A DNA stretch of 64,000 nt from Escherichia coli. Lineage in GTDB: Bacteria; Pseudomonadota; Gammaproteobacteria; Enterobacterales; Enterobacteriaceae. The notes beneath the pieces are model-generated. The model did not search any database, had not been told where the DNA came from, and worked only from the letters and a program-made list of their open reading frames with translations. Shown here one piece after another: positions 1 to 61,214 of the stretch. Position numbers and translations under genes: made by a program. Position 1 is the stretch's first letter, and each line of letters begins with the position of its first letter. Location of the stretch: the NCBI RefSeq assembly GCF_013122565.1, contig NZ_CP053258.1. The stretch is one strand, 5' to 3'.

Positions 1-188
1 TGGTAAGGAATATTACTTCTGGTTCTCAGTAAAATCCTTTCGTAATACTATGTAATCAAGAAGTTTATGGCTGGTAAAAATAACGTCTTGCATTCACCAA
101 TAATATGTAAATAAACCCATCTATAGATGGTAAAAATAGGTTGTGGCAATTATCATTGCATCATTCCCTTTTCGAATGAGTTTCTATT

Positions 189-1727
189 ATGCAACAACCT
201 GTAGTTCGCGTTGGCGAATGGCTTGTTACTCCGTCCATAAACCAAATTAGCCGCAATGGGCGTCAACTTACCCTTGAGCCGAGATTAATCGATCTTCTGG
301 TTTTCTTTGCTCAACACAGTGGCGAAGTACTTAGCAGGGATGAACTTATCGATAATGTCTGGAAGAGAAGTATTGTCACCAATCACGTTGTGACGCAGAG
401 TATCTCAGAACTACGTAAGTCATTAAAAGATAATGATGAAGATAGTCCTGTCTATATCGCTACTGTACCAAAGCGCGGCTATAAATTAATGGTGCCGGTT
501 ATCTGGTACAGCGAAGAAGAGGGAGAGGAAATAATGCTATCTTCGCCTCCCCCTATACCAGAGGCGGTTCCTGCCACAGATTCTCCCTCCCACAGTCTTA
601 ACATTCAAAACACCGCAACACCACCTGAACAATCCCCAGTTAGAAGCAAACGATTCACTACATTTTGGGTATGGTTTTTTTTCCTGTTGTCGTTAGGTAT
701 CTGTGTAGCACTGGTAGCGTTTTCAAGTCTTGATACACGTCTTCCGATGAGCAAATCGCGTATTTTGCTCAATCCACGCGATATTGACATTAATATGGTA
801 AATAAAAGTTGTAACAGCTGGAGTTCCCCGTATCAGCTCTCTTACGCGATAGGCGTGGGTGATTTGGTGGCAACATCACTTAACACCTTCTCCACCTTTA
901 TGGTGCATGACAAAATCAACTACAACATTGATGAACCGAGCAGTTCCGGTAAAACATTATCTATTGCGTTTGTTAATCAGCGCCAATACCGTGCTCAACA
1001 ATGCTTTATGTCGGTAAAATTGGTAGACAATGCAGATGGTTCAACCATGCTGGATAAACGTTATGTCATCACTAACGGCAATCAGCTGGCGATTCAAAAT
1101 GATTTACTGGATAGTTTATCAAAAGCGTTAAACCAACCGTGGCCACAACGAATGCAGGAGATGCTCCAGCAAATTTTGCCTCATCGTGGTGCGTTATTAA
1201 CTAATTTTTATCAGGCACATGATTATTTACTGCATGGCGATGATAAATCATTGAACCGTGCCAGTGAATTATTAGGTGAGATTGTTCAATCATCCCCAGA
1301 ATTTACCTACGCGAGAGCAGAAAAAGCATTAGTTGATATCGTGCGCCATTCTCAACATCCTTTAGATGAAAAACAATTAGCAGCACTGAACACAGAAATA
1401 GATAACATTGTTACACTACCGGAATTGAATAACCTGTCCATTATATATCAAATAAAAGCGGTCAGTGCTCTGGTAAAAGGTAAAACAGATGAGTCTTACC
1501 AGGCGATAAATACTGGCATTGATCTTGAAATGTCCTGGCTAAATTATGTATTGCTTGGCAAGGTTTATGAAATGAAGGGGATGAACCGGGAAGCAGCTGA
1601 TGCATATCTCACCGCCTTTAATTTACGCCCAGGGGCAAACACCCTTTACTGGATTGAAAATGGTATATTCCAGACTTCTGTTCCTTATGTTGTACCTTAT
1701 CTCGACAAATTTCTCGCTTCAGAATAA
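189..1727 (+). CDS. cadC: CadC, membrane-bound ToxR-like transcriptional activator of cadBA
   Basis: 512 aa ORF; N-terminal winged-helix DNA-binding domain, single TM segment (FTTFWVWFFFLLSLGICVALVAF), periplasmic sensor domain; sits upstream of cadB-cadA in the same orientation. Confidence 0.9.
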   Translation: MQQPVVRVGEWLVTPSINQISRNGRQLTLEPRLIDLLVFFAQHSGEVLSRDELIDNVWKRSIVTNHVVTQSISELRKSLKDNDEDSPVYIATVPKRGYKLMVPVIWYSEEEGEEIMLSSPPPIPEAVPATDSPSHSLNIQNTATPPEQSPVRSKRFTTFWVWFFFLLSLGICVALVAFSSLDTRLPMSKSRILLNPRDIDINMVNKSCNSWSSPYQLSYAIGVGDLVATSLNTFSTFMVHDKINYNIDEPSSSGKTLSIAFVNQRQYRAQQCFMSVKLVDNADGSTMLDKRYVITNGNQLAIQNDLLDSLSKALNQPWPQRMQEMLQQILPHRGALLTNFYQAHDYLLHGDDKSLNRASELLGEIVQSSPEFTYARAEKALVDIVRHSQHPLDEKQLAALNTEIDNIVTLPELNNLSIIYQIKAVSALVKGKTDESYQAINTGIDLEMSWLNYVLLGKVYEMKGMNREAADAYLTAFNLRPGANTLYWIENGIFQTSVPYVVPYLDKFLASE

Positions 1728-2092
1728 GTAACCCCCGGGTTGATTCATGCTCGGGAATATTTGTTGTTGAGTTTTTGTATGTTCCTGTTGGTATAATATG
1801 TTGCGGCAATTTATTTGCCGCATAATTTTTATTACATAAATTTAACCAGAAGACGTCACGCAATCTATTGTAAACATTGAATGTTTATCTTTTCATGATA
1901 TCAACTTGCGATCCTGATGTGTTAATAAAAAACCTCAAGTTCTCACTTACAGAAACTTTTGTGTTATTTCACCTAATCTTTAGGATTAATCCTTTTTTCG
2001 TGAGTAATCTTAGCGCCAGTTTGGTCTGGTCAGGAAATAGTTATACATCATGACCCGGACTCCAAATTCAAAAATGAAATTAGGAGAAGAGC
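1728..2092 (+). promoter_or_regulatory. cadC-cadB intergenic region, expected to hold the Pcad promoter and CadC binding sites
   Basis: 365 bp AT-rich non-coding gap directly upstream of cadB; individual binding sites not mapped by eye. Confidence 0.45.
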
Positions 2093-3427
2093 ATGAGTTC
2101 TGCCAAGAAGATCGGGCTATTTGCCTGTACCGGTGTTGTTGCCGGTAATATGATGGGGAGCGGTATTGCATTATTACCTGCGAACCTAGCAAGTATCGGT
2201 GGTATTGCTATCTGGGGTTGGATTATCTCTATTATTGGTGCAATGTCGCTGGCGTATGTATATGCCCGACTGGCAACAAAAAACCCGCAACAAGGTGGCC
2301 CAATTGCTTATGCCGGAGAAATTTCTCCTGCATTTGGTTTTCAGACAGGTGTTCTTTATTACCATGCTAACTGGATTGGTAACCTGGCGATTGGTATTAC
2401 CGCTGTATCTTATCTTTCCACCTTCTTCCCAGTATTAAATGATCCTGTTCCGGCGGGTATAGCCTGTATTGCTATCGTCTGGGTATTTACCTTTGTAAAT
2501 ATGCTCGGCGGTACCTGGGTAAGCCGTTTAACCACTATTGGTCTGGTGCTGGTTCTTATTCCTGTGGTGATGACTGCTATTGTTGGCTGGCATTGGTTTG
2601 ATGCGGCAACTTATGCAGCAAACTGGAATACTGCGGATACCACTGATGGTCATGCGATCATTAAAAGTATTCTGCTCTGCCTGTGGGCCTTCGTGGGTGT
2701 TGAATCCGCAGCTGTAAGTACTGGTATGGTTAAAAACCCGAAACGTACCGTTCCGCTGGCAACCATGCTGGGTACTGGTTTAGCAGGTATTGTTTACATC
2801 GCTGCGACTCAGGTGCTTTCCGGTATGTATCCGTCTTCTGTAATGGCGGCTTCCGGTGCTCCGTTTGCAATCAGTGCTTCAACTATCCTCGGTAACTGGG
2901 CTGCGCCGCTGGTTTCTGCATTCACCGCCTTTGCGTGCCTGACTTCTCTGGGCTCCTGGATGATGTTGGTAGGCCAGGCAGGTGTACGTGCCGCTAACGA
3001 CGGTAACTTCCCGAAAGTTTATGGTGAAGTCGACAGCAACGGTATTCCGAAAAAAGGTCTGCTGCTGGCTGCAGTGAAAATGACTGCCCTGATGATCCTC
3101 ATCACTCTGATGAACTCTGCCGGTGGTAAAGCATCTGACCTGTTCGGTGAACTGACCGGTATCGCAGTACTGCTGACTATGCTGCCGTACTTCTACTCTT
3201 GCGTTGACCTGATTCGTTTTGAAGGCGTTAACATCCGCAACTTTGTCAGCCTGATCTGCTCTGTACTGGGTTGCGTGTTCTGCTTCATCGCGCTGATGGG
3301 CGCAAGCTCCTTCGAGCTGGCAGGTACCTTCATCGTCAGCCTGATTATCCTGATGTTCTACGCTCGCAAAATGCACGAGCGCCAGAGCCACTCAATGGAT
3401 AACCACACCGCGTCTAACGCACATTAA
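2093..3427 (+). CDS. cadB: Lysine/cadaverine antiporter (APC family)
   Basis: 444 aa polytopic membrane protein with amino-acid antiporter signature; immediately upstream of cadA. Confidence 0.9.
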   Translation: MSSAKKIGLFACTGVVAGNMMGSGIALLPANLASIGGIAIWGWIISIIGAMSLAYVYARLATKNPQQGGPIAYAGEISPAFGFQTGVLYYHANWIGNLAIGITAVSYLSTFFPVLNDPVPAGIACIAIVWVFTFVNMLGGTWVSRLTTIGLVLVLIPVVMTAIVGWHWFDAATYAANWNTADTTDGHAIIKSILLCLWAFVGVESAAVSTGMVKNPKRTVPLATMLGTGLAGIVYIAATQVLSGMYPSSVMAASGAPFAISASTILGNWAAPLVSAFTAFACLTSLGSWMMLVGQAGVRAANDGNFPKVYGEVDSNGIPKKGLLLAAVKMTALMILITLMNSAGGKASDLFGELTGIAVLLTMLPYFYSCVDLIRFEGVNIRNFVSLICSVLGCVFCFIALMGASSFELAGTFIVSLIILMFYARKMHERQSHSMDNHTASNAH

Positions 3428-3506
3428 TTAAAAGTATTTTCCGAGGCTCCTCCTTTCATTTTGTCCCATGTGTTGGGAGGGGCCTTTTTTACCTGGAGAT
3501 ATGACT

Positions 3507-5654
3507 ATGAACGTTATTGCAATATTGAATCACATGGGGGTTTATTTTAAAGAAGAACCCATCCGTGAACTTCATCGCGCGCTTGAACGTCTGAACTTCC
3601 AGATTGTTTACCCGAACGACCGTGACGACTTATTAAAACTGATCGAAAACAATGCGCGTCTGTGCGGCGTTATTTTTGACTGGGATAAATATAATCTCGA
3701 GCTGTGCGAAGAAATTAGCAAAATGAACGAGAACCTGCCGTTGTACGCGTTCGCTAATACGTATTCCACTCTCGATGTAAGCCTGAATGACCTGCGTTTA
3801 CAGATTAGCTTCTTTGAATATGCGCTGGGTGCTGCTGAAGATATTGCTAATAAGATCAAGCAGACCACTGACGAATATATCAACACTATTCTGCCTCCGC
3901 TGACCAAAGCGCTGTTTAAATATGTTCGTGAAGGTAAATATACTTTCTGTACTCCTGGTCACATGGGCGGTACTGCATTCCAGAAAAGCCCGGTAGGTAG
4001 CCTGTTCTATGATTTCTTTGGTCCGAATACCATGAAATCTGATATTTCCATTTCAGTATCTGAACTGGGTTCTCTGCTGGATCACAGTGGTCCACACAAA
4101 GAAGCAGAACAGTATATCGCTCGCGTCTTTAACGCAGACCGCAGCTACATGGTGACCAACGGTACTTCCACTGCGAACAAAATTGTTGGTATGTACTCTG
4201 CTCCGGCAGGCAGCACCATTCTGATTGACCGTAACTGCCACAAATCGCTGACCCACCTGATGATGATGAGCGATGTTACGCCAATCTATTTCCGCCCGAC
4301 CCGTAACGCTTACGGTATTCTTGGTGGTATCCCACAGAGTGAATTCCAGCACGCTACCATTGCTAAGCGCGTGAAAGAAACACCAAACGCAACCTGGCCG
4401 GTACATGCTGTAATTACTAACTCTACCTATGATGGTCTGCTGTACAACACCGACTTCATCAAGAAAACACTGGATGTGAAATCCATCCACTTTGACTCCG
4501 CGTGGGTACCTTACACCAACTTCTCACCGATTTACGAAGGTAAATGCGGTATGAGCGGTGGCCGTGTAGAAGGGAAAGTGATTTACGAAACCCAGTCTAC
4601 TCACAAACTGCTGGCGGCGTTCTCTCAGGCTTCCATGATCCACGTTAAAGGTGACGTAAACGAAGAAACCTTTAACGAAGCCTACATGATGCACACCACC
4701 ACTTCTCCGCACTACGGTATCGTGGCGTCCACTGAAACCGCTGCGGCGATGATGAAAGGCAATGCAGGTAAGCGTCTGATCAACGGTTCCATTGAACGTG
4801 CGATCAAATTCCGTAAAGAGATCAAACGTCTGAGAACGGAATCTGATGGCTGGTTCTTTGATGTATGGCAACCGGATCATATCGATACGACTGAATGCTG
4901 GCCGCTGCGTTCTGACAGCACCTGGCACGGCTTCAAAAACATCGATAACGAGCACATGTATCTTGACCCGATCAAAGTCACCCTGCTGACTCCGGGGATG
5001 GAAAAAGACGGCACCATGAGCGACTTTGGTATTCCGGCCAGCATCGTGGCGAAATACCTCGACGAACATGGCATCGTTGTTGAGAAAACCGGTCCGTATA
5101 ACCTGCTGTTCCTGTTCAGCATCGGTATCGATAAGACCAAAGCACTGAGCCTGCTGCGTGCTCTGACTGACTTCAAACGTGCGTTCGACCTGAACCTGCG
5201 TGTGAAAAACATGCTGCCGTCTCTGTATCGTGAAGATCCTGAATTCTATGAAAACATGCGTATTCAGGAACTGGCTCAGAATATCCACAAACTGATTGTT
5301 CACCACAATCTGCCGGATCTGATGTATCGCGCATTTGAAGTGCTGCCGACAATGGTAATGACTCCGTATGCTGCGTTCCAGAAAGAGCTGCACGGTATGA
5401 CCGAAGAAGTTTACCTCGACGAAATGGTAGGTCGTATTAACGCCAATATGATCCTTCCATATCCGCCGGGAGTTCCTCTGGTAATGCCGGGTGAAATGAT
5501 CACCGAAGAAAGCCGTCCGGTTCTGGAGTTCCTGCAGATGCTGTGTGAAATCGGCGCTCACTATCCGGGCTTTGAAACCGATATTCACGGTGCATACCGT
5601 CAGGCTGATGGCCGCTATACCGTTAAGGTATTGAAAGAAGAAAGCAAAAAATAA
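3507..5654 (+). CDS. cadA: Inducible lysine decarboxylase (PLP-dependent)
   Basis: ORF 3468..5654; start placed at the in-frame ATG (MNVIAILNHMG...) giving 715 aa; Orn/Lys/Arg decarboxylase fold with SxHK PLP motif. Confidence 0.9.
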   Translation: MNVIAILNHMGVYFKEEPIRELHRALERLNFQIVYPNDRDDLLKLIENNARLCGVIFDWDKYNLELCEEISKMNENLPLYAFANTYSTLDVSLNDLRLQISFFEYALGAAEDIANKIKQTTDEYINTILPPLTKALFKYVREGKYTFCTPGHMGGTAFQKSPVGSLFYDFFGPNTMKSDISISVSELGSLLDHSGPHKEAEQYIARVFNADRSYMVTNGTSTANKIVGMYSAPAGSTILIDRNCHKSLTHLMMMSDVTPIYFRPTRNAYGILGGIPQSEFQHATIAKRVKETPNATWPVHAVITNSTYDGLLYNTDFIKKTLDVKSIHFDSAWVPYTNFSPIYEGKCGMSGGRVEGKVIYETQSTHKLLAAFSQASMIHVKGDVNEETFNEAYMMHTTTSPHYGIVASTETAAAMMKGNAGKRLINGSIERAIKFRKEIKRLRTESDGWFFDVWQPDHIDTTECWPLRSDSTWHGFKNIDNEHMYLDPIKVTLLTPGMEKDGTMSDFGIPASIVAKYLDEHGIVVEKTGPYNLLFLFSIGIDKTKALSLLRALTDFKRAFDLNLRVKNMLPSLYREDPEFYENMRIQELAQNIHKLIVHHNLPDLMYRAFEVLPTMVMTPYAAFQKELHGMTEEVYLDEMVGRINANMILPYPPGVPLVMPGEMITEESRPVLEFLQMLCEIGAHYPGFETDIHGAYRQADGRYTVKVLKEESKK

Positions 5655-5667
5655 TTAGCTCGTACAA

Positions 5668-5696
5668 GGGAAGTGGCTTGCCACTTCCCTTTTTTG
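5668..5696 (+). terminator. Rho-independent terminator after cadA
   Basis: GC-rich hairpin (gggaagtgg...ccacttccc) followed by a T6 run, 14 bp after the cadA stop. Confidence 0.7.
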
Positions 5697-5712
5697 CTCA
5701 TAAGGAGAACAC

Positions 5713-7170
5713 ATGAAAACACCCTCACAGCCGCGCGCGATATACTATATCGTGGCGATCCAAATCTGGGAGTACTTCAGTTTTTACGGCATGCGTGCCT
5801 TACTCATTCTCTATCTCACCCATCAGCTTGGTTTTGATGATAACCATGCCATCAGCCTGTTCAGCGCATATGCTTCTCTGGTTTACGTTACCCCTATTCT
5901 CGGCGGCTGGCTTGCCGACCGCCTGCTCGGCAACCGCACTGCAGTGATTGCCGGCGCGCTGTTAATGACCCTTGGCCATGTGGTGCTGGGCATTGATACA
6001 AATTCAACCTTTAGCCTGTATCTGGCGCTGGCAATCATTATTTGTGGCTACGGTTTATTCAAATCAAACATCAGCTGTTTGCTTGGCGAGCTCTACGACG
6101 AGAACGATCATCGACGTGATGGCGGTTTTTCGCTGCTGTATGCTGCGGGCAATATCGGTTCTATCGCCGCCCCCATCGCCTGCGGCCTAGCTGCTCAGTG
6201 GTATGGATGGCATGTTGGCTTTGCCCTTGCGGGTGGCGGCATGTTTATCGGTTTGTTGATTTTCTTAAGCGGTCATCGTCATTTCCAGTCCACGCGTAGT
6301 ATGGATAAAAAAGCGCTCACTAGCGTGAAATTTGCCTTACCAGTATGGAGCTGGTTAGTGGTGATGCTCTGTTTAGCCCCAGTATTTTTTACCCTGCTGC
6401 TGGAGAACGACTGGTCCGGATATTTGCTGGCGATCGTTTGCCTCATTGCCGCACAAATCATTGCCCGCATGATGATCAAATTCCCCGAACACCGCCGTGC
6501 TCTTTGGCAAATTGTATTGTTGATGTTTGTCGGGACATTGTTCTGGGTACTGGCACAACAGGGCGGCAGTACCATCAGCTTGTTTATCGATCGCTTTGTG
6601 AATCGTCAGGCATTCAATATTGAAGTACCTACAGCACTATTCCAGTCGGTGAATGCAATTGCGGTGATGCTCGCTGGGGTTGTTCTGGCCTGGCTGGCGT
6701 CGCCAGAAAGTCACGGCAACTCAACATTGCGCGTCTGGCTGAAGTTTGCCTTTGGCTTACTGCTGATGGCTTGTGGGTTTATGTTGCTGGCATTTGATGC
6801 CCGACATGCAGCAGCTGACGGTCAAGCGTCAATGGGCGTGATGATATCCGGGCTGGCGCTAATGGGCTTTGCCGAACTCTTTATTGACCCGGTGGCGATT
6901 GCGCAAATCACGCGTCTGAAAATGTCTGGCGTATTAACCGGTATTTATATGCTGGCAACAGGCGCGGTCGCCAACTGGCTGGCAGGCGTCGTGGCACAGC
7001 AGACGACAGAGTCGCAAATTAGCGGTATGGCAATTGCAGCTTACCAGCGATTCTTTTCTCAGATGGGAGAGTGGACGTTGGCTTGTGTCGCGATCATCGT
7101 GGTATTGGCCTTTGCTACCCGTTTTCTGTTTAGCACGCCGACGAATATGATACAGGAGAGCAACGATTAA
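5713..7170 (+). CDS. dtpC: Dipeptide/tripeptide:proton symporter (POT/PTR2 family)
   Basis: 485 aa MFS-type permease; position between cadA and lysU matches dtpC (yjdL). Confidence 0.85.
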
Positions 7171-7406
7171 CTGTCGTAAAAACAATTGGTTATGAATAAA
7201 TTAACTTTCAGCTTATAACACTAGCAAATCGAGATTAATAAGTCATTTAAACCATTTCGATGGTTATTTATTAGTGATATCAACTTGAGGTAAGCGTTAG
7301 TTTCGATAAGATAAACTGAGTTATTAATAGTCGAGGCAGATAATACAGTGTACCGATCTGTCTCTTTATCTACGCTAAATTGAAAGCTGGATTTAGAGGA
7401 ACCAAA

Positions 7407-8924
7407 ATGTCTGAACAAGAAACACGGGGAGCCAATGAGGCTATTGATTTTAACGATGAACTGAGAAATCGCCGCGAAAAACTGGCGGCACTACGTCAGC
7501 AAGGTGTGGCGTTTCCCAATGATTTTCGCCGCGACCATACCTCTGACCAGTTGCACGAAGAGTTTGATGCGAAGGATAACCAGGAACTGGAATCCTTAAA
7601 CATTGAAGTCTCGGTTGCTGGCCGAATGATGACCCGTCGTATCATGGGGAAAGCCTCCTTTGTAACGTTGCAGGATGTCGGTGGCCGTATTCAACTGTAC
7701 GTCGCACGAGATAGCCTGCCAGAAGGTGTTTATAACGATCAGTTTAAAAAATGGGATCTGGGTGACATTATCGGTGCCCGCGGTACGCTGTTTAAGACGC
7801 AAACGGGTGAGCTTTCCATTCACTGTACTGAGCTGCGCCTGCTGACTAAAGCACTACGTCCTTTACCAGATAAATTCCATGGTCTGCAGGATCAGGAAGT
7901 CCGTTATCGTCAACGTTATCTGGACCTCATCGCTAACGATAAATCCCGTCAAACGTTTGTTGTCCGTTCAAAAATTCTGGCCGCTATCCGCCAGTTCATG
8001 GTCGCGCGCGGCTTTATGGAAGTAGAAACCCCGATGATGCAGGTAATTCCAGGTGGGGCATCTGCTCGCCCGTTTATTACCCATCATAACGCTCTGGATT
8101 TAGATATGTATCTGCGTATCGCGCCGGAGCTGTATCTGAAACGTCTGGTTGTAGGCGGTTTTGAACGGGTATTCGAAATCAACCGTAACTTCCGTAATGA
8201 AGGTATTTCTGTTCGCCATAATCCTGAGTTCACAATGATGGAACTCTACATGGCGTATGCGGATTACCACGATTTGATTGAACTGACAGAGTCACTGTTC
8301 CGCACCCTGGCACAAGAGGTTCTGGGTACCACTAAAGTCACTTATGGCGAGCATGTGTTTGATTTCGGCAAACCGTTTGAAAAACTCACCATGCGCGAAG
8401 CAATCAAAAAATATCGTCCAGAAACCGATATGGCCGACCTGGATAATTTTGATGCTGCTAAAGCATTAGCTGAATCTATCGGAATTACGGTAGAGAAAAG
8501 CTGGGGGCTGGGACGTATTGTCACGGAGATCTTTGATGAAGTGGCAGAAGCACATCTGATTCAGCCAACCTTTATTACGGAATATCCGGCAGAAGTGTCA
8601 CCGCTGGCGCGCCGTAATGATGTTAACCCAGAAATCACCGACCGTTTTGAATTCTTCATCGGTGGTCGTGAAATCGGTAATGGTTTTAGCGAATTAAACG
8701 ACGCAGAAGATCAGGCTGAACGTTTCCAGGAACAGGTTAACGCTAAAGCTGCAGGTGACGACGAAGCCATGTTCTATGACGAAGATTACGTGACTGCGCT
8801 GGAATATGGTCTGCCGCCAACCGCTGGCCTGGGTATTGGCATCGACCGAATGATTATGCTGTTTACTAACAGCCATACTATTCGCGACGTTATTCTCTTC
8901 CCGGCGATGCGCCCACAGAAATAA
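7407..8924 (+). CDS. lysU: Lysyl-tRNA synthetase, inducible isoform
   Basis: ORF 7380..8924; start at MSEQETRG gives 505 aa; class II aaRS motifs and N-terminal OB anticodon-binding domain; position next to the cad locus identifies it as lysU rather than lysS. Confidence 0.9.
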
Positions 8925-8935
8925 ATTTCACTTTA

Positions 8936-8969
8936 ATGAACGAAGCAGTCAGGCGACTGCTTCGTTCAT
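8936..8969. terminator. Inverted repeat between the convergent lysU and ghoT genes, possible bidirectional terminator
   Basis: 15 bp perfect stem (atgaacgaagcagtc / gactgcttcgttcat) with a 4 nt loop; no strong T-tract on the + strand. Confidence 0.4.
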
Positions 8970-9042
8970 CGTTCCGCAAATCCAGTTTTGAGGAGAGACG
9001 CTTCGTTTCACGATAACCAGCGGGTCCACTCAACTACAGCTC

Positions 9043-22360: not shown

Positions 22361-22550
22361 GCTTTTTTTTGCCTGTTATTTACCCTGTAAAAAAATATGT
22401 ACATGAGAAATTACTATAAAAATTTGTAATATTAGTAAAACTCGTTATTTTTATGCATGTTTATATTCATCATACAATTATATAACCATTTCCCGGTATC
22501 GCTTTGCTTTAGCGAGAACTGGTCTTTTATTCGCACTCAGGAGTACATGT

Positions 22551-23312
22551 ATGAGGATTTGCAGCGACCAACCTTGTATTGTTTTATTGACTGAAAAAGA
22601 TGTCTGGATAAGGGTGAATGGGAAAGAACCTATTAGCCTTAAAGCTAACCACATGGCGTTATTAAATTGTGAAAATAATATTATCGACGTCTCCTCTCTT
22701 AACAACACTTTGGTTGCTCATATTAGTCACGACATCATCAAAGATTACCTCCGATTTCTGAATAAAGATCTCTCGCAAATACCAGTATGGCAACGTAGCG
22801 CTACGCCCATACTCACCCTGCCATGCCTGACGCCAGACGTCTTTCGCGTTGCCGCGCAACATAGCATGATGCCCGCAGAAACAGAGTCAGAAAAGGAACG
22901 AACACGCGCATTATTATTCACTGTGCTATCCCGTTTTCTCGACAGTAAAAAATTCCTTTCATTAATGATGTATATGTTACGTAATTGTGTAAGTGACAGC
23001 GTTTATCAAATTATTGAAAGCGATATCCACAAAGACTGGAATCTTAGTATGGTAGCCAGTTGTTTATGTCTTAGCCCAAGTCTGTTAAAGAAAAAGCTGA
23101 AAAGCGAAAACACCAGTTATAGCCAAATAATCACCACCTGCCGCATGCGTTATGCCGTAAATGAATTAATGATGGACGGTAAAAATATCTCTCAGGTATC
23201 ACAGTCCTGCGGCTACAACAGTACGTCGTACTTTATTTCTGTCTTTAAAGACTTCTACGGTATGACGCCGCTGCATTATGTTAGTCAGCACAGAGAACGC
23301 ACTGTCGCCTGA
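22551..23312 (+). CDS. adiY: AraC-family regulator of the adi system
   Basis: 253 aa; AraC-type HTH at the C-terminus; between adiA and adiC. Confidence 0.85.
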   Translation: MRICSDQPCIVLLTEKDVWIRVNGKEPISLKANHMALLNCENNIIDVSSLNNTLVAHISHDIIKDYLRFLNKDLSQIPVWQRSATPILTLPCLTPDVFRVAAQHSMMPAETESEKERTRALLFTVLSRFLDSKKFLSLMMYMLRNCVSDSVYQIIESDIHKDWNLSMVASCLCLSPSLLKKKLKSENTSYSQIITTCRMRYAVNELMMDGKNISQVSQSCGYNSTSYFISVFKDFYGMTPLHYVSQHRERTVA

Positions 23313-23448
23313 TTTTTAACCTTAACGAAGAGCTATATTAATAACGGCATCAGCGATAACCCGGTCGATAATAATTCAACTATCGAATGCAGGCGTATGA
23401 TATGACGTAATTTATTGTCACGAAGCTCGCCTTCGCAGGAGTTTAATT

Positions 23449-24786
23449 ATGTCTTCGGATGCTGATGCTCACAAAGTGGGCTTAATCCCCGTCACCCTGA
23501 TGGTGTCGGGGAATATTATGGGGTCAGGTGTTTTTCTGTTACCTGCAAACCTGGCCTCCACTGGCGGGATTGCCATTTATGGATGGTTGGTGACGATTAT
23601 CGGTGCGCTGGGGCTCTCGATGGTATACGCCAAAATGTCGTTCCTCGACCCAAGTCCTGGTGGTTCTTACGCTTACGCCCGCCGCTGCTTTGGCCCGTTT
23701 CTCGGTTATCAAACCAACGTCCTCTACTGGCTGGCCTGCTGGATCGGCAATATCGCCATGGTGGTCATTGGCGTAGGATATTTAAGTTACTTCTTCCCGA
23801 TTCTGAAAGATCCATTGGTATTAACCATCACCTGCGTCGTGGTGCTGTGGATCTTCGTCCTGCTGAACATTGTCGGTCCGAAAATGATCACCCGTGTGCA
23901 GGCAGTTGCCACCGTGCTGGCGCTGATCCCCATCGTCGGGATTGCCGTATTTGGCTGGTTCTGGTTCCGGGGTGAAACCTATATGGCGGCATGGAACGTC
24001 AGCGGCCTGGGCACCTTCGGTGCAATTCAAAGTACCCTTAACGTTACGCTGTGGTCGTTCATCGGTGTGGAAAGTGCCTCCGTTGCCGCAGGTGTGGTGA
24101 AAAACCCGAAACGCAATGTCCCTATCGCCACCATTGGTGGGGTATTGATTGCCGCCGTTTGCTATGTACTTTCTACCACCGCGATTATGGGGATGATCCC
24201 TAATGCCGCACTGCGCGTTTCTGCTTCGCCATTCGGTGATGCCGCACGGATGGCGTTGGGTGACACCGCTGGGGCCATTGTTTCCTTCTGCGCAGCTGCG
24301 GGTTGCTTAGGTTCACTGGGCGGCTGGACGTTGCTGGCGGGTCAAACGGCGAAAGCCGCTGCCGATGACGGACTGTTCCCACCGATTTTTGCCCGTGTAA
24401 ATAAAGCGGGTACGCCAGTGGCGGGGCTGATTATCGTCGGTATTTTGATGACCATCTTCCAGCTCAGCAGCATTTCACCAAACGCGACCAAAGAGTTCGG
24501 TCTGGTTTCTTCCGTCTCGGTCATCTTTACACTGGTGCCATATCTTTACACCTGTGCGGCGTTACTGCTGCTCGGCCACGGTCACTTTGGTAAAGCACGC
24601 CCGGCATATCTGGCTGTTACTACCATTGCCTTCCTCTACTGCATTTGGGCCGTGGTGGGGTCCGGGGCGAAAGAGGTTATGTGGTCATTTGTCACCCTGA
24701 TGGTCATCACCGCCATGTATGCGCTGAATTACAACCGGCTACATAAAAACCCGTATCCCTTAGATGCACCAATAAGCAAAGATTAA
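23449..24786 (+). CDS. adiC: Arginine/agmatine antiporter (APC family)
   Basis: 445 aa; paralogous in fold to CadB (shared N-terminal GSG motifs). Confidence 0.9.
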
Positions 24787-27207: not shown

Positions 27208-28299
27208 ATGCGTTTTCTGCGCCGACCAATATCGCTGCGCCAACGGCTGATATTGACCATCGGGGCCATTTTGTTGGTGTTTGAGCTGATCAGCGTCTTC
27301 TGGCTATGGCATGAAAGTACCGAGCAGATTCAGCTGTTTGAGCAGGCGCTACGCGACAATCGCAACAACGATCGCCACATCATGCGTGAGATCCGCGAGG
27401 CGGTCGCCAGCCTGATCGTCCCCGGCGTCTTTATGGTCAGCCTGACGCTATTTATCTGCTATCAGGCGGTACGCCGCATCACCCGCCCGCTGGCGGAGCT
27501 GCAAAAAGAGCTGGAAGCGCGCACCGCCGACAACTTAACGCCCATTGCCATTCACAGCGCCACCCTCGAAATCGAAGCGGTGGTTTCGGCGTTGAACGAT
27601 CTGGTCAGTCGCCTGACCAGCACGCTGGATAACGAAAGGTTGTTTACCGCTGACGTCGCGCACGAACTGCGAACGCCACTGGCGGGGGTGCGTTTGCATC
27701 TGGAACTGCTGGCGAAAACGCATCACATTGATGTAGCACCGTTAGTGGCACGGCTTGATCAGATGATGGAGAGCGTCTCCCAGCTGCTGCAACTGGCGCG
27801 TGCCGGACAGTCATTTTCTTCCGGTAATTATCAACATGTAAAACTGCTGGAAGATGTCATTCTCCCCTCGTATGACGAACTCAGTACCATGCTCGACCAG
27901 CGCCAGCAAACCCTGCTATTGCCAGAGAGCGCCGCCGACATCACCGTTCAGGGTGATGCAACCCTGCTGCGGATGTTATTGCGAAACCTGGTAGAAAACG
28001 CCCATCGTTACAGCCCGCAAGGCAGCAACATTATGATTAAGCTGCAAGAAGATGGCGGAGCGGTCATGGCTGTTGAAGATGAAGGTCCGGGTATTGATGA
28101 GAGTAAATGCGGGGAGTTGAGTAAAGCATTTGTACGTATGGACAGCCGTTATGGCGGGATTGGTCTGGGGTTAAGTATTGTCAGCCGCATTACACAGTTG
28201 CATCACGGGCAGTTTTTCCTGCAAAACCGGCAAGAGACTTCCGGCACGCGGGCCTGGGTACGGCTGAAGAAAGATCAAAACGTGACAAACCAGATATAA
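27208..28299 (+). CDS. basS: Sensor histidine kinase BasS/PmrB
   Basis: ORF 27199..28299 opens on TTG; ATG at 27208 (MRFLRRP) gives 363 aa; two TM segments, HAMP, H-box (AHELRTP), ATPase domain. Confidence 0.85.
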   Translation: MRFLRRPISLRQRLILTIGAILLVFELISVFWLWHESTEQIQLFEQALRDNRNNDRHIMREIREAVASLIVPGVFMVSLTLFICYQAVRRITRPLAELQKELEARTADNLTPIAIHSATLEIEAVVSALNDLVSRLTSTLDNERLFTADVAHELRTPLAGVRLHLELLAKTHHIDVAPLVARLDQMMESVSQLLQLARAGQSFSSGNYQHVKLLEDVILPSYDELSTMLDQRQQTLLLPESAADITVQGDATLLRMLLRNLVENAHRYSPQGSNIMIKLQEDGGAVMAVEDEGPGIDESKCGELSKAFVRMDSRYGGIGLGLSIVSRITQLHHGQFFLQNRQETSGTRAWVRLKKDQNVTNQI

Positions 28300-28435
28300 A
28301 GAAAGCTGCTGACCACCAGCACGCTGAACACGGTAGTTAAACTTTCATAAACACGGTTTTTCATTGCACTCTCCTCCGTTAACCTGGAGGAGAGTATGCG
28401 CGTCAGAGATTAAGTGAACCTTAAGAGTTCAATTG

Positions 28436-34347: not shown

Positions 34348-34782
34348 ATGCCGTTAAGTCCCTACCTCTCTTTTGCCGGTAACTGTTCCGACGCGATTGC
34401 CTATTATCAACGTACGTTGGGCGCGGAACTGCTCTATAAAATCAGCTTCGGCGAAATGCCAAAATCAGCGCAGGACAGCGCCGAGAACTGCCCTTCCGGA
34501 ATGCAATTTCCCGATACCGCCATCGCTCATGCCAACGTGCGCATTGCCGGAAGCGACATCATGATGAGCGATGCTATACCGTCAGGAAAAGCTAGCTACT
34601 CCGGCTTTACGCTGGTGCTCGATTCGCAACAGGTCGAAGAAGGAAAACGCTGGTTTGATAACCTTGCCGCTAACGGAAAAATCGAAATGGCCTGGCAGGA
34701 AACTTTCTGGGCGCATGGCTTCGGCAAAGTCACCGATAAATTTGGCGTACCGTGGATGATTAATGTCGTTAAACAACAATAA
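34348..34782 (+). CDS. phnB: PhnB-like glyoxalase/bleomycin-resistance fold protein
   Basis: ORF 34249..34782 runs through the BIME; start placed at MPLSPYLSF (GAGG ribosome-binding site upstream), about 144 aa. Confidence 0.75.
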   Translation: MPLSPYLSFAGNCSDAIAYYQRTLGAELLYKISFGEMPKSAQDSAENCPSGMQFPDTAIAHANVRIAGSDIMMSDAIPSGKASYSGFTLVLDSQQVEEGKRWFDNLAANGKIEMAWQETFWAHGFGKVTDKFGVPWMINVVKQQ

Positions 34783-34832
34783 TAGCTACCTGCTGCGCCC
34801 ACTGGCGTTAATTCCCAAAAAGGAGAAATACC

Positions 34833-35267
34833 ATGCCTGCTTGTGAGCTTCGACCGGCCACGCAGTACGACACCGACGCGGTTTACGCACTGATTTGTGA
34901 GCTAAAACAGGCGGAGTTTGACCACCACGCGTTTCGCGTGGGCTTTAACGCCAACCTGCGCGACCCAAACATGCGCTACCATCTGGCGCTGCTGGATGGC
35001 GAAGTTGTCGGCATGATCGGCCTGCATTTGCAGTTTCATCTGCATCATGTCAACTGGATCGGCGAAATTCAGGAACTGGTGGTGATGCCGCAGGCACGCG
35101 GTTTGAACGTTGGTAGCAAGTTGCTGGCGTGGGCGGAAGAGGAAGCCCGTCAGGCCGGGGCCGAAATGACCGAGCTTTCTACCAACGTGAAGCGCCACGA
35201 CGCGCACCGTTTTTATCTGCGCGAAGGCTATGAGCAGAGCCATTTCCGTTTCACTAAGGCGCTGTAA
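34833..35267 (+). CDS. phnO: GNAT-family N-acetyltransferase, PhnO-like
   Basis: 144 aa; acetyl-CoA binding motif (Q/R-x-x-G-x-G/A pattern: [11 protein letters not shown]); recognised as PhnO-like from sequence and from its position after phnB and before yjdP. Confidence 0.55.
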
Positions 35268-35279
35268 GATGAGCCTACC

Positions 35280-35609
35280 TCATCGCCCATACTCATCTTC
35301 CATTCTCCGCTCTTCATCTTCTAGCTGCCGACGCTCCTGATCAAGCTGGCGCTGGCGATCGTCCAGTTGCCTGCGGCGATCTTCAAACTGGCGGCGGCGA
35401 TCGTCATATTGTCTGCGACGATCGTCGCTCACTTCACGCTGCCAGCTGTCGTCGCGCGAATCTTCATAGTCTCGCCCACGGTCAGGGTTATAAGCGTCGT
35501 TAATCGCCTGCTGAATATTGCCAATGGTGTCGTCGATAATATCGGCCTGGGCCGGAACGGTGGACAGCGTGAGCAGGGTGAAAAGAAAGAGCGTGGAGTG
35601 GTGTTTCAT
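35280..35609 (-). CDS. yjdP: Small secreted low-complexity protein YjdP
   Basis: 109 aa; N-terminal signal peptide, then an Arg/Asp/Gln/Glu-rich repetitive tail. Confidence 0.7.
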   Translation of the reverse strand: MKHHSTLFLFTLLTLSTVPAQADIIDDTIGNIQQAINDAYNPDRGRDYEDSRDDSWQREVSDDRRRQYDDRRRQFEDRRRQLDDRQRQLDQERRQLEDEERRMEDEYGR

Positions 35610-52340: not shown

Positions 52341-54488
52341 ATGAAAAAAGTCGTCACGGTTTGCCCCTATTGCGCATCAGGTTGCAAAATCAACCTGGTC
52401 GTCGATAACGGCAAAATCGTCCGGGCGGAGGCAGCGCAGGGGAAAACCAACCAGGGTACCCTGTGTCTGAAGGGTTATTATGGCTGGGATTTCATTAACG
52501 ATACCCAGATCCTGACCCCGCGCCTGAAAACCCCCATGATCCGTCGCCAGCGTGGCGGCAAACTCGAACCTGTTTCCTGGGATGAGGCACTGAATTACGT
52601 TGCCGAGCGCCTGAGCGCCATCAAAGAGAAGTACGGTCCGGATGCCATCCAGACGACCGGCTCCTCGCGTGGTACGGGTAACGAAACCAACTATGTAATG
52701 CAAAAATTTGCGCGCGCCGTTATTGGTACCAATAACGTTGACTGCTGCGCTCGTGTCTGACACGGCCCATCGGTTGCAGGTCTGCACCAATCGGTCGGTA
52801 ATGGCGCAATGAGCAATGCTATTAACGAAATTGATAATACCGATTTAGTGTTCGTTTTCGGGTACAACCCGGCGGATTCCCACCCAATCGTAGCGAATCA
52901 CGTAATTAACGCTAAACGTAACGGGGCGAAAATTATCGTCTGCGATCCGCGCAAAATTGAAACCGCGCGCATTGCTGACATGCACATTGCACTGAAAAAC
53001 GGCTCGAACATCGCGCTGTTGAATGCGATGGGCCATGTCATTATTGAAGAAAATTTGTACGACAAAGCGTTCGTCGCTTCCCGTACAGAAGGCTTTGAAG
53101 AGTATCGTAAAATCGTTGAAGGCTACACGCCGGAGTCGGTTGAAGATATCACCGGCGTCAGCGCCAGTGAGATTCGTCAGGCGGCACGGATGTATGCCCA
53201 GGCGAAAAGCGCCGCCATCCTGTGGGGCATGGGTGTAACCCAGTTCTACCAGGGCGTGGAAACCGTGCGTTCTCTGACCAGCCTCGCGATGCTGACCGGT
53301 AACCTCGGTAAGCCGCATGCGGGTGTAAACCCGGTTCGTGGTCAGAACAACGTGCAGGGTGCCTGCGATATGGGCGCGCTGCCGGATACGTATCCGGGAT
53401 ACCAGTACGTGAAAGATCCGGCTAACCGCGAGAAATTCGCCAAAGCCTGGGGCGTGGAAAGCCTGCCTGCTCATACCGGTTATCGCATCAGCGAGCTGCC
53501 GCACCGCGCAGCGCATGGCGAAGTGCGTGCCGCGTACATTATGGGCGAAGATCCGCTACAAACTGACGCGGAGCTGTCGGCAGTACGTAAAGCCTTTGAA
53601 GATCTGGAACTGGTCATCGTTCAGGACATCTTTATGACCAAAACCGCGTCGGCGGCGGATGTTATTTTACCGTCAACGTCGTGGGGCGAGCATGAAGGCG
53701 TGTTTACTGCGGCTGACCGTGGCTTCCAGCGTTTCTTCAAAGCAGTTGAACCGAAATGGGATCTGAAAACGGACTGGCAAATCATCAGTGAAATCGCTAC
53801 CCGAATGGGTTATCCGATGCACTACAACAACACCCAGGAGATCTGGGATGAGTTGCGTCATCTGTGCCCGGATTTCTACGGTGCGACTTACGAGAAAATG
53901 GGCGAACTGGGCTTCATTCAGTGGCCTTGCCGCGATACTTCAGATGCCGATCAGGGGACTTCTTATCTGTTTAAAGAGAAGTTTGATACCCCGAACGGTC
54001 TGGCGCAGTTCTTCACCTGCGACTGGGTAGCGCCAATCGACAAACTCACCGACGAGTACCCGATGGTACTGTCAACGGTGCGTGAAGTTGGTCACTACTC
54101 TTGCCGTTCGATGACCGGTAACTGTGCGGCACTGGCGGCGCTGGCTGATGAACCTGGCTACGCACAAATCAATACCGAAGACGCCAAACGTCTGGGTATT
54201 GAAGATGAGGCATTGGTTTGGGTGCACTCGCGTAAAGGCAAAATTATCACCCGTGCGCAGGTCAGCGATCGTCCGAACAAAGGGGCGATTTACATGACCT
54301 ACCAGTGGTGGATTGGTGCCTGTAACGAGCTGGTTACCGAAAACTTAAGCCCGATTACGAAAACGCCGGAGTACAAATACTGTGCCGTGCGCGTCGAGCC
54401 GATCGCCGATCAGCGCGCCGCCGAGCAGTACGTGATTGACGAGTACAACAAGTTGAAAACTCGCCTGCGCGAAGCGGCACTGGCGTAA
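52341..54488 (+). CDS. fdhF: Formate dehydrogenase H, selenocysteine-containing molybdoenzyme
   Basis: Two in-frame ORFs (52341..52760 and 52809..54488) joined by a single TGA at 52758..52760; read through as selenocysteine this gives a 715 aa protein with an N-terminal Fe-S cysteine motif (CPYCASGC) and a molybdopterin oxidoreductase fold. Confidence 0.85.
52758..52805 (+). other. SECIS element: in-frame UGA plus downstream stem-loop for selenocysteine insertion
   Basis: tga cacggcccatcggttgcaggtctgcaccaatcggtcggtaatgg forms the hairpin immediately 3' of the recoded UGA. Confidence 0.75.
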
Positions 54489-55271: not shown

Positions 55272-56539
<1,268 letters not shown>

Positions 56540-56568
56540 CAACAGCGCCTGACGGCGCTGTATCTGGC

Positions 56569-56815
<247 letters not shown>

Positions 56816-58507: not shown

Positions 58508-59104
58508 TTAATCCGATCTCCGCTGCAACAATTTCGCCATATTAATCGACTCGACCAGCTGTGTCCGGTTGATCCGGGGTGAGTTGAGATCCATCACTTT
58601 TTGCCATAGTTCGATGGCTTGCGCGTAATTCGCCTGCATAAACGCATCGGAAGCCAGCAGCATCAGAGCGGTGATTTCGTTAGAGTCCAGCGCGAGGGCT
58701 TTGTCGATCATTGCGCGAGTCTGGGCGGTCATATGCTGGCTGGCCTGGTAATAAAGCACCGTCGCCAGCGCCGCATACAGTTCAGCGTTCTCACCACGTA
58801 GTTGCAACGCCTGACGGTACGCCAGCAGCGAATTGCTGTAATCGTTTTGCCACAGATAGTACTCGCCCAGTAACGCCCACTGTTCGCTGTTTTGTGGATT
58901 CGCGCGGATTTTATCCTGCAATGCCTGAAGCTGCGCTTCCGGGGTTTGCTGGCTGGCAAACTGATGTAGCGGATCGCGCTGGCGCTGATACTCCGCACGT
59001 ACCGCCTGCCATTTTGGGCTTAACAGATAACTGCCGACACAGAGGAATACCATCAATATCGTGAGTGTTGTCAGCATTTTCACCGGTATTTGAGGCTGTT
59101 TCAT
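58508..59104 (-). CDS. nrfG: Cytochrome c nitrite reductase biogenesis protein (TPR protein)
   Basis: ORF 58508..59170 opens on GTG; in-frame ATG at 59104 ([11 protein letters not shown]) gives 198 aa; TM anchor plus TPR repeats. Confidence 0.8.
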
Positions 59105-59484
59105 CGCTTCGCCCTCACTCGCCAGAGGATCAGTGCCATCAGCAGTAACAACACCACTGGCAGCGCCCACAACACCAGCGTCTGACCCGTTAACGGTGGG
59201 TTATAGCGAACAAAATCTCCGTAGCGTTCGGTCATCCAGCCAATGATTTCGACTTCACTTTTCCCCTCCGCCACCATGCTGTAAACCTGATGGCGCATAC
59301 TGACTGCCACCGGCGCGTTGGATTCCAGTAAGTTTTGATTCTGGCACTGCGGACAACGTAACTGGCTGGCAATATTTAACGCCTGTTGCTGTTGTTGCGG
59401 ATTGGCGAATTGCCAGGTGTCTACAACCTGAGCGCGCGCAAAACAGGTAAATAACAGCAGTAGCGTGAGAAGCCCTTTATACAT
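59101..59484 (-). CDS. nrfF: Heme lyase subunit NrfF (CcmH-like)
   Basis: 127 aa; signal peptide and CPQC thiol-redox motif. Confidence 0.8.
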
Positions 59485-61159
59485 CGCGCTTCTTCCCCCG
59501 CCATCCGCTTAACAATGCGCCCGCAATCATCAACAATCCTCCCCCCCAGATCCAGCGCACACCGCTTTGTACATACAAACGAAAAGCGTAACGATCCGCT
59601 CCGGTTTTTTCACCCATGACCGCATACCAGTCATGGATGCCGTTCCAGCGAATTGACGGTTCCATCATTTGCTGACGACGTGCTTCGTAAAAACGCCGCT
59701 CCGGCGTTAATTCACCAATGCGTTGCTGATGGTCAAACAGCGCCACTATCGCTTTTTCGCTGGTGTAATTGCCTTTGGCTTGTAGATCGAGGCGCTCAAA
59801 ACGGAAGGTGTATCCTGCCAGCATCACCTGCTGGCCCGGCTGTAAATTCAGGCTGATCTCCTGACGGCTGACGCTGGAGACCACGATCCCCGCGGCAAAT
59901 AACAGCATGCCCGCATGCGCCAGCAGCGCCGGAAGCTGCGCGCGTTTGCCAGAGACAAACGTCGCCAGCACAATCACCACCAACATCAACAGACCAAACG
60001 GTAACGTCGCGCGGTTAAAATACGGTGCGCCAACGGAGAGGCGTCCCCAGCCCAGCAGGCCGTAAATCATCGGATAAAGCGTTCCCACCAGCACGATCAG
60101 TAGCACTGCGCAAAACAGCAACAGCGTAGCGAGGATTAACATTTCCCGCGATAACCCCGAAAAACGCACCGCCGGGCCACCGTCCCGCGCTCGCCAGCCA
60201 TACAGAGCCAGAGACGCAAGGCTAATCAGTACAAACAGACTGAACAACGGCACGGCGCGGACGTTATCCAGCGCGAACGCATGAACCGAAACCAGAATGC
60301 CAGAACGGACAATTAAGGTGCCCAGCAGCGACAGCATCAGAGTAACTATCGCCAGTAACAGCGACCAGTGGCGAAAAATCCCCCGCTGGCGTGTCAGGGA
60401 TAAACTGTGCAGCAACGCAGTGGCAGAAAGCCAGGGTAGTAAAGAGGCGTTTTCCACCGGATCCCAGAACCACCAGCCGCCCCAGCCCAGTTCGCAATAG
60501 GCCCACCAGGAACCGAGGATGATCCCCGCAGTTAATGCACTCCAGCCAGGTAACGCCCAGCGCCAGCAAATTCGGGCGCAGGCACCATCAAACTCGCCGC
60601 GCAGTAGACTCGCCAGCGCCACGCTCGCCGCTACCATCAAACCGCCATAGCCAAGGTAAAGCAGCGGTGGATGAAAGATAAGACCGGGATGTTGCAGCAT
60701 CGGATTGAGATCGCGGCCTTCGATTGCTGGTGGAAATATCCGCACGAAGGGATCGGACCACAGCACCACAAACAGTAGCAGTGCGGCGAGCATGAGAGAT
60801 AAAACGGCTAGCGTCAGCGGAAATAGCGGATCGGTTTGCTGCCGATAATGCCAGGCAAACAGCGCGCTCCAGGCGGAAAGCAGCAGCACCCAAAGCAGCA
60901 GCGAACCTTCATGACCGCCCCACACCGCCGCCAGTTTGAGTTCCCACGACAGCAGGCTGTAGCTATGTTGGGCGACATAAATGACCGAGAAATCGCTGAT
61001 GAGAAAACAATACGTCAGTACGCCAAAGGCGAGCAGCTGGAGCGCGAACTGCGCCAGAATGCCGATGCAAGTGAGTCGCATCATGGCAGGCCAGCGCAAC
61101 CGCACTCCCGCAAAGGCCGTCAACGGGGTCAACACGTTGACCCCGAGACTTAACAACAA
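59477..61159 (-). CDS. nrfE: Heme lyase NrfE (CcmF-like)
   Basis: ORF extent, about 552-560 aa; polytopic membrane protein with Trp-rich motif; exact start uncertain. Confidence 0.8.
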   Translation of the reverse strand: MLLSLGVNVLTPLTAFAGVRLRWPAMMRLTCIGILAQFALQLLAFGVLTYCFLISDFSVIYVAQHSYSLLSWELKLAAVWGGHEGSLLLWVLLLSAWSALFAWHYRQQTDPLFPLTLAVLSLMLAALLLFVVLWSDPFVRIFPPAIEGRDLNPMLQHPGLIFHPPLLYLGYGGLMVAASVALASLLRGEFDGACARICWRWALPGWSALTAGIILGSWWAYCELGWGGWWFWDPVENASLLPWLSATALLHSLSLTRQRGIFRHWSLLLAIVTLMLSLLGTLIVRSGILVSVHAFALDNVRAVPLFSLFVLISLASLALYGWRARDGGPAVRFSGLSREMLILATLLLFCAVLLIVLVGTLYPMIYGLLGWGRLSVGAPYFNRATLPFGLLMLVVIVLATFVSGKRAQLPALLAHAGMLLFAAGIVVSSVSRQEISLNLQPGQQVMLAGYTFRFERLDLQAKGNYTSEKAIVALFDHQQRIGELTPERRFYEARRQQMMEPSIRWNGIHDWYAVMGEKTGADRYAFRLYVQSGVRWIWGGGLLMIAGALLSGWRGKKRDV

Positions 61160-61214
61160 CGCCAGAAAACCGACTTCAGGAAGGAATACGTCCAGAAACC
61201 ACCTCTGTTCTGGC

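Follow-up and report, generated by a model that had tools for sequence, protein, structure and literature searches.

The Cad system is among the best-studied acid-stress modules, and the closest described version is the cadC–cadBA locus of Escherichia coli K-12 MG1655 (b4133, b4132 and b4131). According to the K-12 literature, CadC is a low-copy, membrane-anchored one-component regulator that is kept inactive at neutral pH by the lysine permease LysP together with a C208–C272 disulfide. [quoted passage not shown] Laboratories disagree on whether cleavage at R184 by DegP/DegQ is an activation requirement.

Two further systems are close relatives. The arginine-dependent Adi system (adiA–adiY–adiC) shares the logic of Cad, namely a fold-type I PLP decarboxylase, an APC-family substrate/product antiporter and a dedicated activator, but differs in its arginine/agmatine substrate, in its gene order and in its regulator, which is the cytoplasmic AraC-type protein AdiY rather than a membrane ToxR-like CadC. 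LdcC, the constitutive lysine decarboxylase, has the same fold and chemistry as CadA. Here we describe the cad locus in a 64,000-nucleotide stretch of E. coli DNA (contig NZ_CP053258.1), which we refer to as the window.

The cad locus of the window

Three plus-strand open reading frames, cadC, cadB and cadA, occupy positions 189–5654, and together with their flanking elements they are laid out as follows.

1–188, plus strand: region upstream of cadC, identical to K-12 at 188 of 188 positions and presumably holding the cadC promoter
189–1727, plus strand: cadC, a 512 aa membrane-integrated ToxR-like transcriptional activator (NF007540)
1734–1755 and 1802–1822, plus strand: two terminator-like hairpins 3' of cadC with T-rich tails, from a terminator scan
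1868–1908, plus strand: Cad1, predicted upstream CadC-binding site, by pattern match to the K-12 41-mer
1909–2092, plus strand: remaining cadBA promoter and cadB 5' leader, with the Cad2 region, the core promoter and a transcription start site (TSS) at about 2015–2021
2093–3427, plus strand: cadB, a 444 aa lysine:cadaverine antiporter of the APC superfamily (NF007754)
3443–3490, plus strand: GC-rich stem-loop with a U6 tail, within the 79-nt cadB–cadA spacer
3507–5654, plus strand: cadA, the 715 aa inducible PLP-dependent lysine decarboxylase LdcI (NF011929)
5666–5697, plus strand: intrinsic-terminator-like hairpin 3' of cadA, with an 11-bp perfect stem, a GCTT loop and T6

The sequence-only reading had described this region as a complete, intact and co-oriented cadC–cadBA module of ordinary core content, and each part of that description holds. 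All three proteins score far above the curated cut-offs of their NCBIfam models (equivalog models for CadC and CadB, a subfamily model for CadA), all three genes lie on the plus strand, and a search for internal stops or frameshifts in cadC, cadB and cadA found none; in length, start codon and stop codon each gene agrees with its K-12 counterpart. The layout is that of the cadBA operon, with cadC upstream, a spacer containing CadC sites, cadB followed by cadA, and a terminator-like hairpin at the end. A search of 5426 complete E. coli genomes recovered an 8-kb region spanning the locus in 5292 (about 97%), 5190 of them with coverage of at least 80%, and the region is colinear with annotated cadC, cadB, cadA, dtpC and lysS in RefSeq genomes at 99.4–99.5% identity. 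Since the cad set is so widespread, the observation is correct but not news: the locus is already known, there is nothing new in it, and its discovery value is small.

Gene order, orientation and lengths are those of K-12 MG1655, as are the Cad1/Cad2 promoter architecture, the cadB–cadA spacer, the terminator and the flanking dtpC–lysU. The three genes differ from K-12 at 34 nucleotides (synonymous or non-synonymous), and the 365-nt cadC–cadB spacer has about 10 differences, including a 1-nt insertion at 1732. The O157:H7 strain PA20 has the same gene coordinates and identical spacers (0 differences at 1728–2092, 3428–3506 and 5655–5712); its cadC differs by 11 nt (4 aa), its cadB by 2 nt and its cadA by 12 nt, those in cadB and cadA all synonymous. 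From sequence comparison we consider it very probable that this is the canonical E. coli Cad system, which confers lysine-dependent acid resistance, with all its parts in place and most likely in working order. The module is probably expressed and active in the source strain, and a lysine-decarboxylase-positive phenotype is predicted. Shigella and enteroinvasive E. coli (EIEC) have undergone pathoadaptive loss of cadA, and the intact locus argues against a loss of that type here.

CadC and its sensor domain

CadC (QJU25873.1) matches NF007540 with 754.3 bits (cut-off 400), its residues 1–509 aligning to profile positions 1–515. It combines an OmpR-type winged helix, a polyproline linker, one transmembrane helix and a periplasmic sensor. 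The N-terminal winged helix corresponds to the Pfam domain Trans_reg_C (residues 24–100) and to the structure 5JU7, which matches residues 2–107; the linker is disordered and carries the polyproline motif PPP at 120–122; and the single hydrophobic segment, at about 159–181, begins at residue 159 with the stretch FWVWFFFLLSLGICVALVAF. The sensor domain, residues 188–512, is matched by 3LY7 over its whole length, contains the Pfam domain CadC_C1 (191–324) and is built of two subdomains.

CadC shares 507 of 512 residues (99.0%) with its K-12 counterpart, the differences being K152R, I276V, E308D, T325M and K328Q. Published work names as functional the DNA-contact residues R32, R50, W58, H66, T69, Q70, R76, T92, K95 and Y98 (PMC5430869), the segment R184-LPMSKS with C208 and C272 (PMC11484849), an acidic patch made up of D198, D200, E461, E468 and D471 along with polyproline motifs (PMC5936718), and R265 and R268 (PMC6320335). 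Every one of these residues is retained in the CadC of the window, and the five substitutions fall outside all four lists. The exact CadC allele is rare: in a set of about 15 billion proteins it was seen on a single contig, and no identical cadC was found among the complete RefSeq E. coli genomes, where the best match reaches 99.5%. The gene of the co-sensor, lysP, and the accessory genes dsbC, degP/Q, efp and hns are located outside the window.

The cadBA promoter

Downstream of cadC, the segment 1728–1835 that contains the two post-cadC hairpins folds with a dG of -28.8 kcal/mol (z -2.8). The Cad1 site that follows was defined in K-12 as the 41-mer from -153 to -113 of the cadBA promoter (PMC5430869), and the predicted site in the window holds the quasi-palindrome TAAACATT-G-AATGTTTA. 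It differs from the K-12 41-mer by a single A>G at 1879, in the palindrome centre. From 1880 to 2012 the sequence is again identical to K-12, up to a single T>G at 2013 in the core promoter. The position of the cadBA TSS was taken from the numbering of PMC5430869, and it is approximate only, because the numbers given there for the 41-mer and for a 17-mer disagree by 6 nt. The cadB leader has the Shine–Dalgarno sequence AGGAG. At both the Cad1 centre and the core promoter the K-12 alleles are the minority, which calls for caution in generalising from K-12 promoter data.

CadB, CadA and the hairpins of the operon

CadB is identical in amino-acid sequence to that of K-12 (0 differences) and scores 920.4 bits against NF007754 (cut-off 585); against the models of its paralogues it reaches 414.7 bits for AdiC (E 4e-124), below the cut-off of 574, and 267.9 bits for PotE. 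Its Pfam domain is AA_permease_2, and among solved structures AdiC is the nearest to it (E 3e-99).

The mechanically defined cadA frame, 3468–5654, would encode 728 aa. We rejected the longer start at ATG 3468 in favour of ATG 3507, because the CadA model alignment begins at frame residue 14, RefSeq genomes annotate the start at 3507, and a GGAG Shine–Dalgarno sequence precedes 3507 and none precedes 3468. CadA scores 1628.4 bits on NF011929 (cut-off 1056), has the Pfam domains OKR_DC_1_N, OKR_DC_1 and OKR_DC_1_C, and carries the PLP-binding lysine K367 in the motif STHKLL. On the AdiA model it stays below the cut-off (E 3e-171). On the LdcC model it reaches 1350 bits, but it differs from LdcC in its higher score on the CadA/LdcI model, in its cadBA context, and in its amino-acid identity with K-12 CadA (0 differences) and the LdcI structure 3N75, to which it aligns over its full length. 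Lysine decarboxylase activity is predicted for it.

A strong terminator after cadA had been proposed, and the expected structure is present: in the stem-loop 5666–5691 the 11-bp stem, of which 6 pairs are GC, closes a 4-nt loop and is followed by TTTTTT, with a centroid dG of -18.2 kcal/mol (z = -3.45 against shuffles). An identical hairpin lies 3' of cadA in Klebsiella pneumoniae and K. aerogenes. The stem-loop at 3443–3490 folds with a dG of -27 kcal/mol (z -3.2); with its U6 tail in E. coli it resembles an intrinsic terminator inside the operon, and in Klebsiella the stem is kept through GU/GC changes and the U-run is lost.

Alternative readings of the locus

One alternative reading is that the module is intact but differently regulated, with an altered pH or lysine threshold, or with constitutive or silent expression, owing to CadC itself or to the promoter polymorphisms. 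CadC does carry five amino-acid changes from K-12, against none in CadB or CadA. Two of the five, K152R next to the membrane helix and E308D in the periplasmic N-subdomain, occur in none of the three genomes used for comparison, and all 14 other CadC sequences in the alignment have K at position 152. These two private substitutions are nevertheless conservative (Lys/Arg and Glu/Asp) and lie away from the residues named in the literature. Similarly, the base at 1879 falls within the TTA of the proposed CadC consensus 5'-TTAxxxxT-3' (PMC5430869), yet the 41-mer with G is the majority allele, identical in 3645 of 5171 genomes, and we rejected this change as the mark of a defective Cad1. The T>G at 2013 was likewise rejected as an unusual break of the -10 element, the 44-mer at 2002–2045 being common (1839 of 5177 genomes, O157:H7 among them), and the full spacer is an exact match to that of O157:H7 PA20. 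O157:H7 is typically lysine-decarboxylase positive. Altered regulation is highly improbable in our view. Two further ideas draw their support from the conservation of sequence and structure and are distinctly unlikely: that the element at 3443–3490 would act as a regulated attenuator or RNA-stability element setting the CadB:CadA ratio, or that K152R and E308D would shift the set-point of CadC.

A different proposal places the canonical module within a larger unit, a conserved lysine-centred cluster cadC–cadBA–dtpC–lysU in which dtpC and lysU would be co-regulated with cadBA or read through from it, DtpC importing lysine-containing dipeptides and LysU serving as the inducible lysyl-tRNA synthetase. 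DtpC (YjdL) prefers dipeptides with a C-terminal lysine, which fits this proposal, as does the arrangement of the genes: dtpC begins 58 nt past cadA with lysU next in the same orientation, K. pneumoniae and K. aerogenes keep the order cadC–cadB–cadA–dtpC–lysU, and Salmonella has cadC–cadB–cadA–lysU, with dtpC missing. This shared gene order speaks for the canonical Cad system as well. Against it, the strong hairpin with T6 separates cadA from dtpC, and its perfect conservation in Klebsiella argues for termination there; Salmonella, moreover, has no dtpC at the corresponding position, so that dtpC appears dispensable to the cluster. We regard the larger unit as unlikely, and the canonical Cad system as the preferred reading.

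Genomic context

The window had also been described as enriched in acid-stress and anaerobic functions, and the genes concerned were all recovered: dcuS/R/B, fumB, adiA/Y/C (the Adi system, at 19959–24786), fdhF, with its SECIS element at 52753–52807, and nrfG–D are present and intact. They occur in the same order in NZ_CP091839, the best-matching genome, and this arrangement is what we take to be the conserved 93–94 min region of K-12. The enrichment is this conserved K-12 arrangement and no peculiarity of the window.

A scan of positions 1–9000 for hidden RNA genes gave no Rfam match at gathering score. Four minus-strand antisense frames (4524–5588, 2879–3391, 4053–4490 and 1618–1863) had no Pfam match at E<=0.01, and they were for that reason treated as chance open reading frames. 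Other features of the window are more unusual than cad, namely the absence of melB, the rarely seen loss of the phn operon, of which phnO alone is left, and an IS621-family bridge-recombinase element, elsewhere in the window, that sits in a REP site.

The cadC–cadBA module

The locus at 189-5654 had been described from sequence alone as a complete lysine-dependent acid resistance module and as ordinary core content, and both this observation and its interpretation are correct. The cad locus here is already known and ordinary, and the noteworthy features of the window lie outside it. In the ORF list the three large ORFs share the + strand and one orientation, and two further ORFs follow.

Gene calls in the cad region
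189-1727, + strand, cadC, 512 aa
2093-3427, + strand, cadB, 444 aa
3468-5654, + strand, cadA as a mechanical ORF, 728 aa
5713-7170, DtpC-like ORF, downstream of cadA
7380-8924, lysyl-tRNA synthetase ORF, downstream of the DtpC-like ORF

The identities proposed for the three cad genes hold in comparison with K-12 and by NCBIfam models, whose curated cut-offs are far exceeded.

NCBIfam assignments (score, cut-off)
CadC: NF007540, equivalog (754 bits, 400)
CadB, cadaverine/lysine antiporter: NF007754, equivalog (920 bits, 585)
CadA, lysine decarboxylase: NF011929, subfamily (1628 bits, 1056)

Within the mechanical ORF 3468-5654 the match to the decarboxylase model begins at residue 14, the RefSeq annotation of colinear genomes starts cadA at the equivalent of 3507, and a GGAG Shine–Dalgarno sequence lies upstream of the ATG at 3507 only and not of that at 3468; cadA is therefore assigned to 3507-5654 (715 aa). 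The Pfam architectures of all three proteins are as expected, and a PDB sequence search matches CadC to its solved DNA-binding (5JU7) and periplasmic (3LY7) domains and CadA over its full length to LdcI (3N75), while the nearest solved relative of CadB is AdiC. Antisense ORFs within the cad genes have no Pfam match, and an Rfam scan of window 1-9000 returned no family at gathering score.

Comparison with K-12 and other E. coli

A megablast search with window 1-8000 found the cad region in 5,292 of 5,426 complete E. coli genomes (at least 80% covered in 5,190), as core content should be, with a best identity of 99.5% and matches annotated as cadC, cadB, cadA, dtpC and lysS. The 8-kb region has no match in 134 of these genomes, and 3 of 5,310 matches are on plasmid-typed records.

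Compared directly with K-12 MG1655, all five genes have the same lengths, ATG starts and TAA stops and contain no internal stops, so that the module is intact as claimed. CadB and CadA are identical in amino-acid sequence to their K-12 counterparts, CadC differs at five positions (K152R, I276V, E308D, T325M and K328Q), and the 188 nt 5′ of cadC are the same. Amino-acid changes relative to O157:H7 are likewise concentrated in CadC, where 11 nucleotide differences give four changes, with none in CadB and CadA, where 14 nucleotide differences are all silent. The cadC–cadB, cadB–cadA and cadA–dtpC spacers are each identical to those of E. coli O157:H7 PA20.

The CadC allele and its regulatory context

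In K-12, LysP and the C208–C272 disulfide keep CadC inactive at neutral pH, a block lifted by low pH and lysine, after which CadC dimers on the Cad1 and Cad2 sites activate cadBA; CadA converts lysine to cadaverine with the use of one proton, CadB acts as a cadaverine/lysine exchanger, and CadC is subject to feedback by cadaverine (PMC5936718, PMC11484849, PMC5430869). Every functional CadC residue named in the cited literature is present in the window's protein. These comprise the DNA-contact and DNA-binding residues R32, R50, W58, H66, T69, Q70, R76, T92, K95 and Y98 (PMC5430869), the DegP/DegQ cleavage site R184-LPMSKS and the disulfide pair C208/C272 (PMC11484849), the acidic pH-sensing patch D198, D200, E461, E468 and D471 together with the polyproline stalling motifs of the linker (PMC5936718), and R265, R268 and D471 (PMC6320335). 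Proteolytic cleavage of CadC is not required according to one review (PMC5936718), whereas a contrary account reports cleavage at R184 to be necessary (PMC11484849); the window's CadC sequence fits both views.

V276, M325 and Q328 are shared with other E. coli genomes, that of strain 7/2 being one example; K152R and E308D were not found in the three genomes compared, and position 152 is Lys in all 14 other CadC sequences aligned. The exact 512-aa protein occurs in public data as QJU25873.1/WP_171459959.1, from one 4.82-Mb contig only, and no identical cadC was found among complete RefSeq E. coli genomes (best 99.5%). As both private changes are conservative, we infer that they would be without functional consequence.

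The Cad1 41-mer of Schlundt et al., corresponding to −153 to −113 of PcadBA (PMC5430869), is located at 1868-1908 with one change from K-12, A>G at 1879, the central N of the quasi-palindrome TAAACATT-N-AATGTTTA. Because this base lies inside the proposed TTAxxxxT consensus its allele frequency was checked; exactly the window's 41-mer is carried by 3,645 of 5,171 genomes, and the K-12 allele is therefore the minority one. Near the cadBA core promoter the window departs from K-12 at just one other base, 2013 (T>G), and the 44-mer around it is identical in 1,839 of 5,177 genomes, O157:H7 among them.

Hairpins and spacers

The strong terminator reported 3′ of cadA is borne out by a perfect 11-bp stem followed by T6 at 5666-5697 (centroid ΔG −18.2 kcal/mol, z −3.45). 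Its hairpin AAGGGAAGTGGCTTGCCACTTCCCTT (5666-5691) is the same base for base in K. pneumoniae and K. aerogenes (at about 7160-7190 of both comparison contigs, L008 and L009), although the sequence immediately 5′ of it has diverged. Two terminator-like hairpins lie 3′ of cadC, at 1734-1755 and 1802-1822. Within the cadBA operon itself, a strong GC stem-loop with a U6 tail (3443-3490, ΔG −27 kcal/mol) lies in the cadB–cadA spacer and looks like an intrinsic terminator; in Klebsiella GU/GC changes preserve the stem, and the U-run is lost.

Neighbourhood and gene order

The surrounding acid-stress and anaerobic genes, in which the window had been called strikingly rich, were located by transfer of the annotation of NZ_CP091839, the best-matching E. 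coli genome, and all are present and intact.

Acid and anaerobic neighbours
10462-14720, dcuS, dcuR and dcuB, intact
14798-16444, fumB, intact
19959-24786, adiA, adiY and adiC, intact
52341-54488, fdhF, intact
58508-62171, nrfG to nrfD, intact

The one in-frame TGA of fdhF is accompanied by a SECIS element at 52753-52807. Gene order is the same in NZ_CP091839, and the arrangement is the conserved 93-94 min region of E. coli K-12 rather than a special property of this window. Klebsiella shares the order cadC–cadB–cadA–dtpC–lysU with the window, whereas Salmonella lacks dtpC between cadA and lysU. In the Salmonella contig (L007, 1792-3313) cadC is called as two genes of 272 and 227 aa and is therefore apparently disrupted, and the 2.2-kb gap 5′ of cadB in the K. 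pneumoniae contig (L008, 1356-3584) has no cadC call.

Other features of the window

Relative to NZ_CP091839 there is a 1.28-kb insertion at 55348-56623, between yjcO and gltP, bordered by REP/naRNA4 elements (55276-55346 and 56667-56737) and encoding a 326-aa IS110-family transposase at 55539-56519 (Pfam DEDD_Tnp_IS110 and Transposase_20). The matching element in RefSeq genomes is annotated as an IS621-family transposase, IS621 being a bridge-RNA-guided recombinase. Even the closest copies in complete genomes are only about 97-98% identical, and in strains C9 and MB53 the match extends over the entire query, flanks included.

The phn (phosphonate) operon is almost wholly missing at 34780-35280, where phnO (34833-35267) begins about 50 nt after the yjdN stop and is followed directly by yjdP. 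Searches for phnC, phnM, phnN and phnP gave no match, and block alignment shows the entire phnC–phnN stretch to be missing; of 5,426 complete genomes only 11 align across the junction, with an identity no higher than about 96%. The segment 34820-45000 has 94-97% identity to the best-matching genome, far below the figure of about 99% for the rest of the window. It holds phnO and yjdP, a gene for a hybrid sensor kinase, and a cluster encoding a sugar ABC transporter, lyxose isomerase, aldolase and kinase; the aldolase gene is intact here but a pseudogene in NZ_CP091839.

At 17194-17213 melB is missing, with melA and melR intact, so that the yjdF stop adjoins the end of melA, and its absence predicts no melibiose transport via MelB. 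This arrangement is a common structural variant, shared by 1,264 of 5,426 genomes, that of E. coli 042 among them. An Rfam match to the sRNA STnc630 (28268-28433, − strand, 177.7 bits) overlaps the pmrB/pmrR/proP junction.
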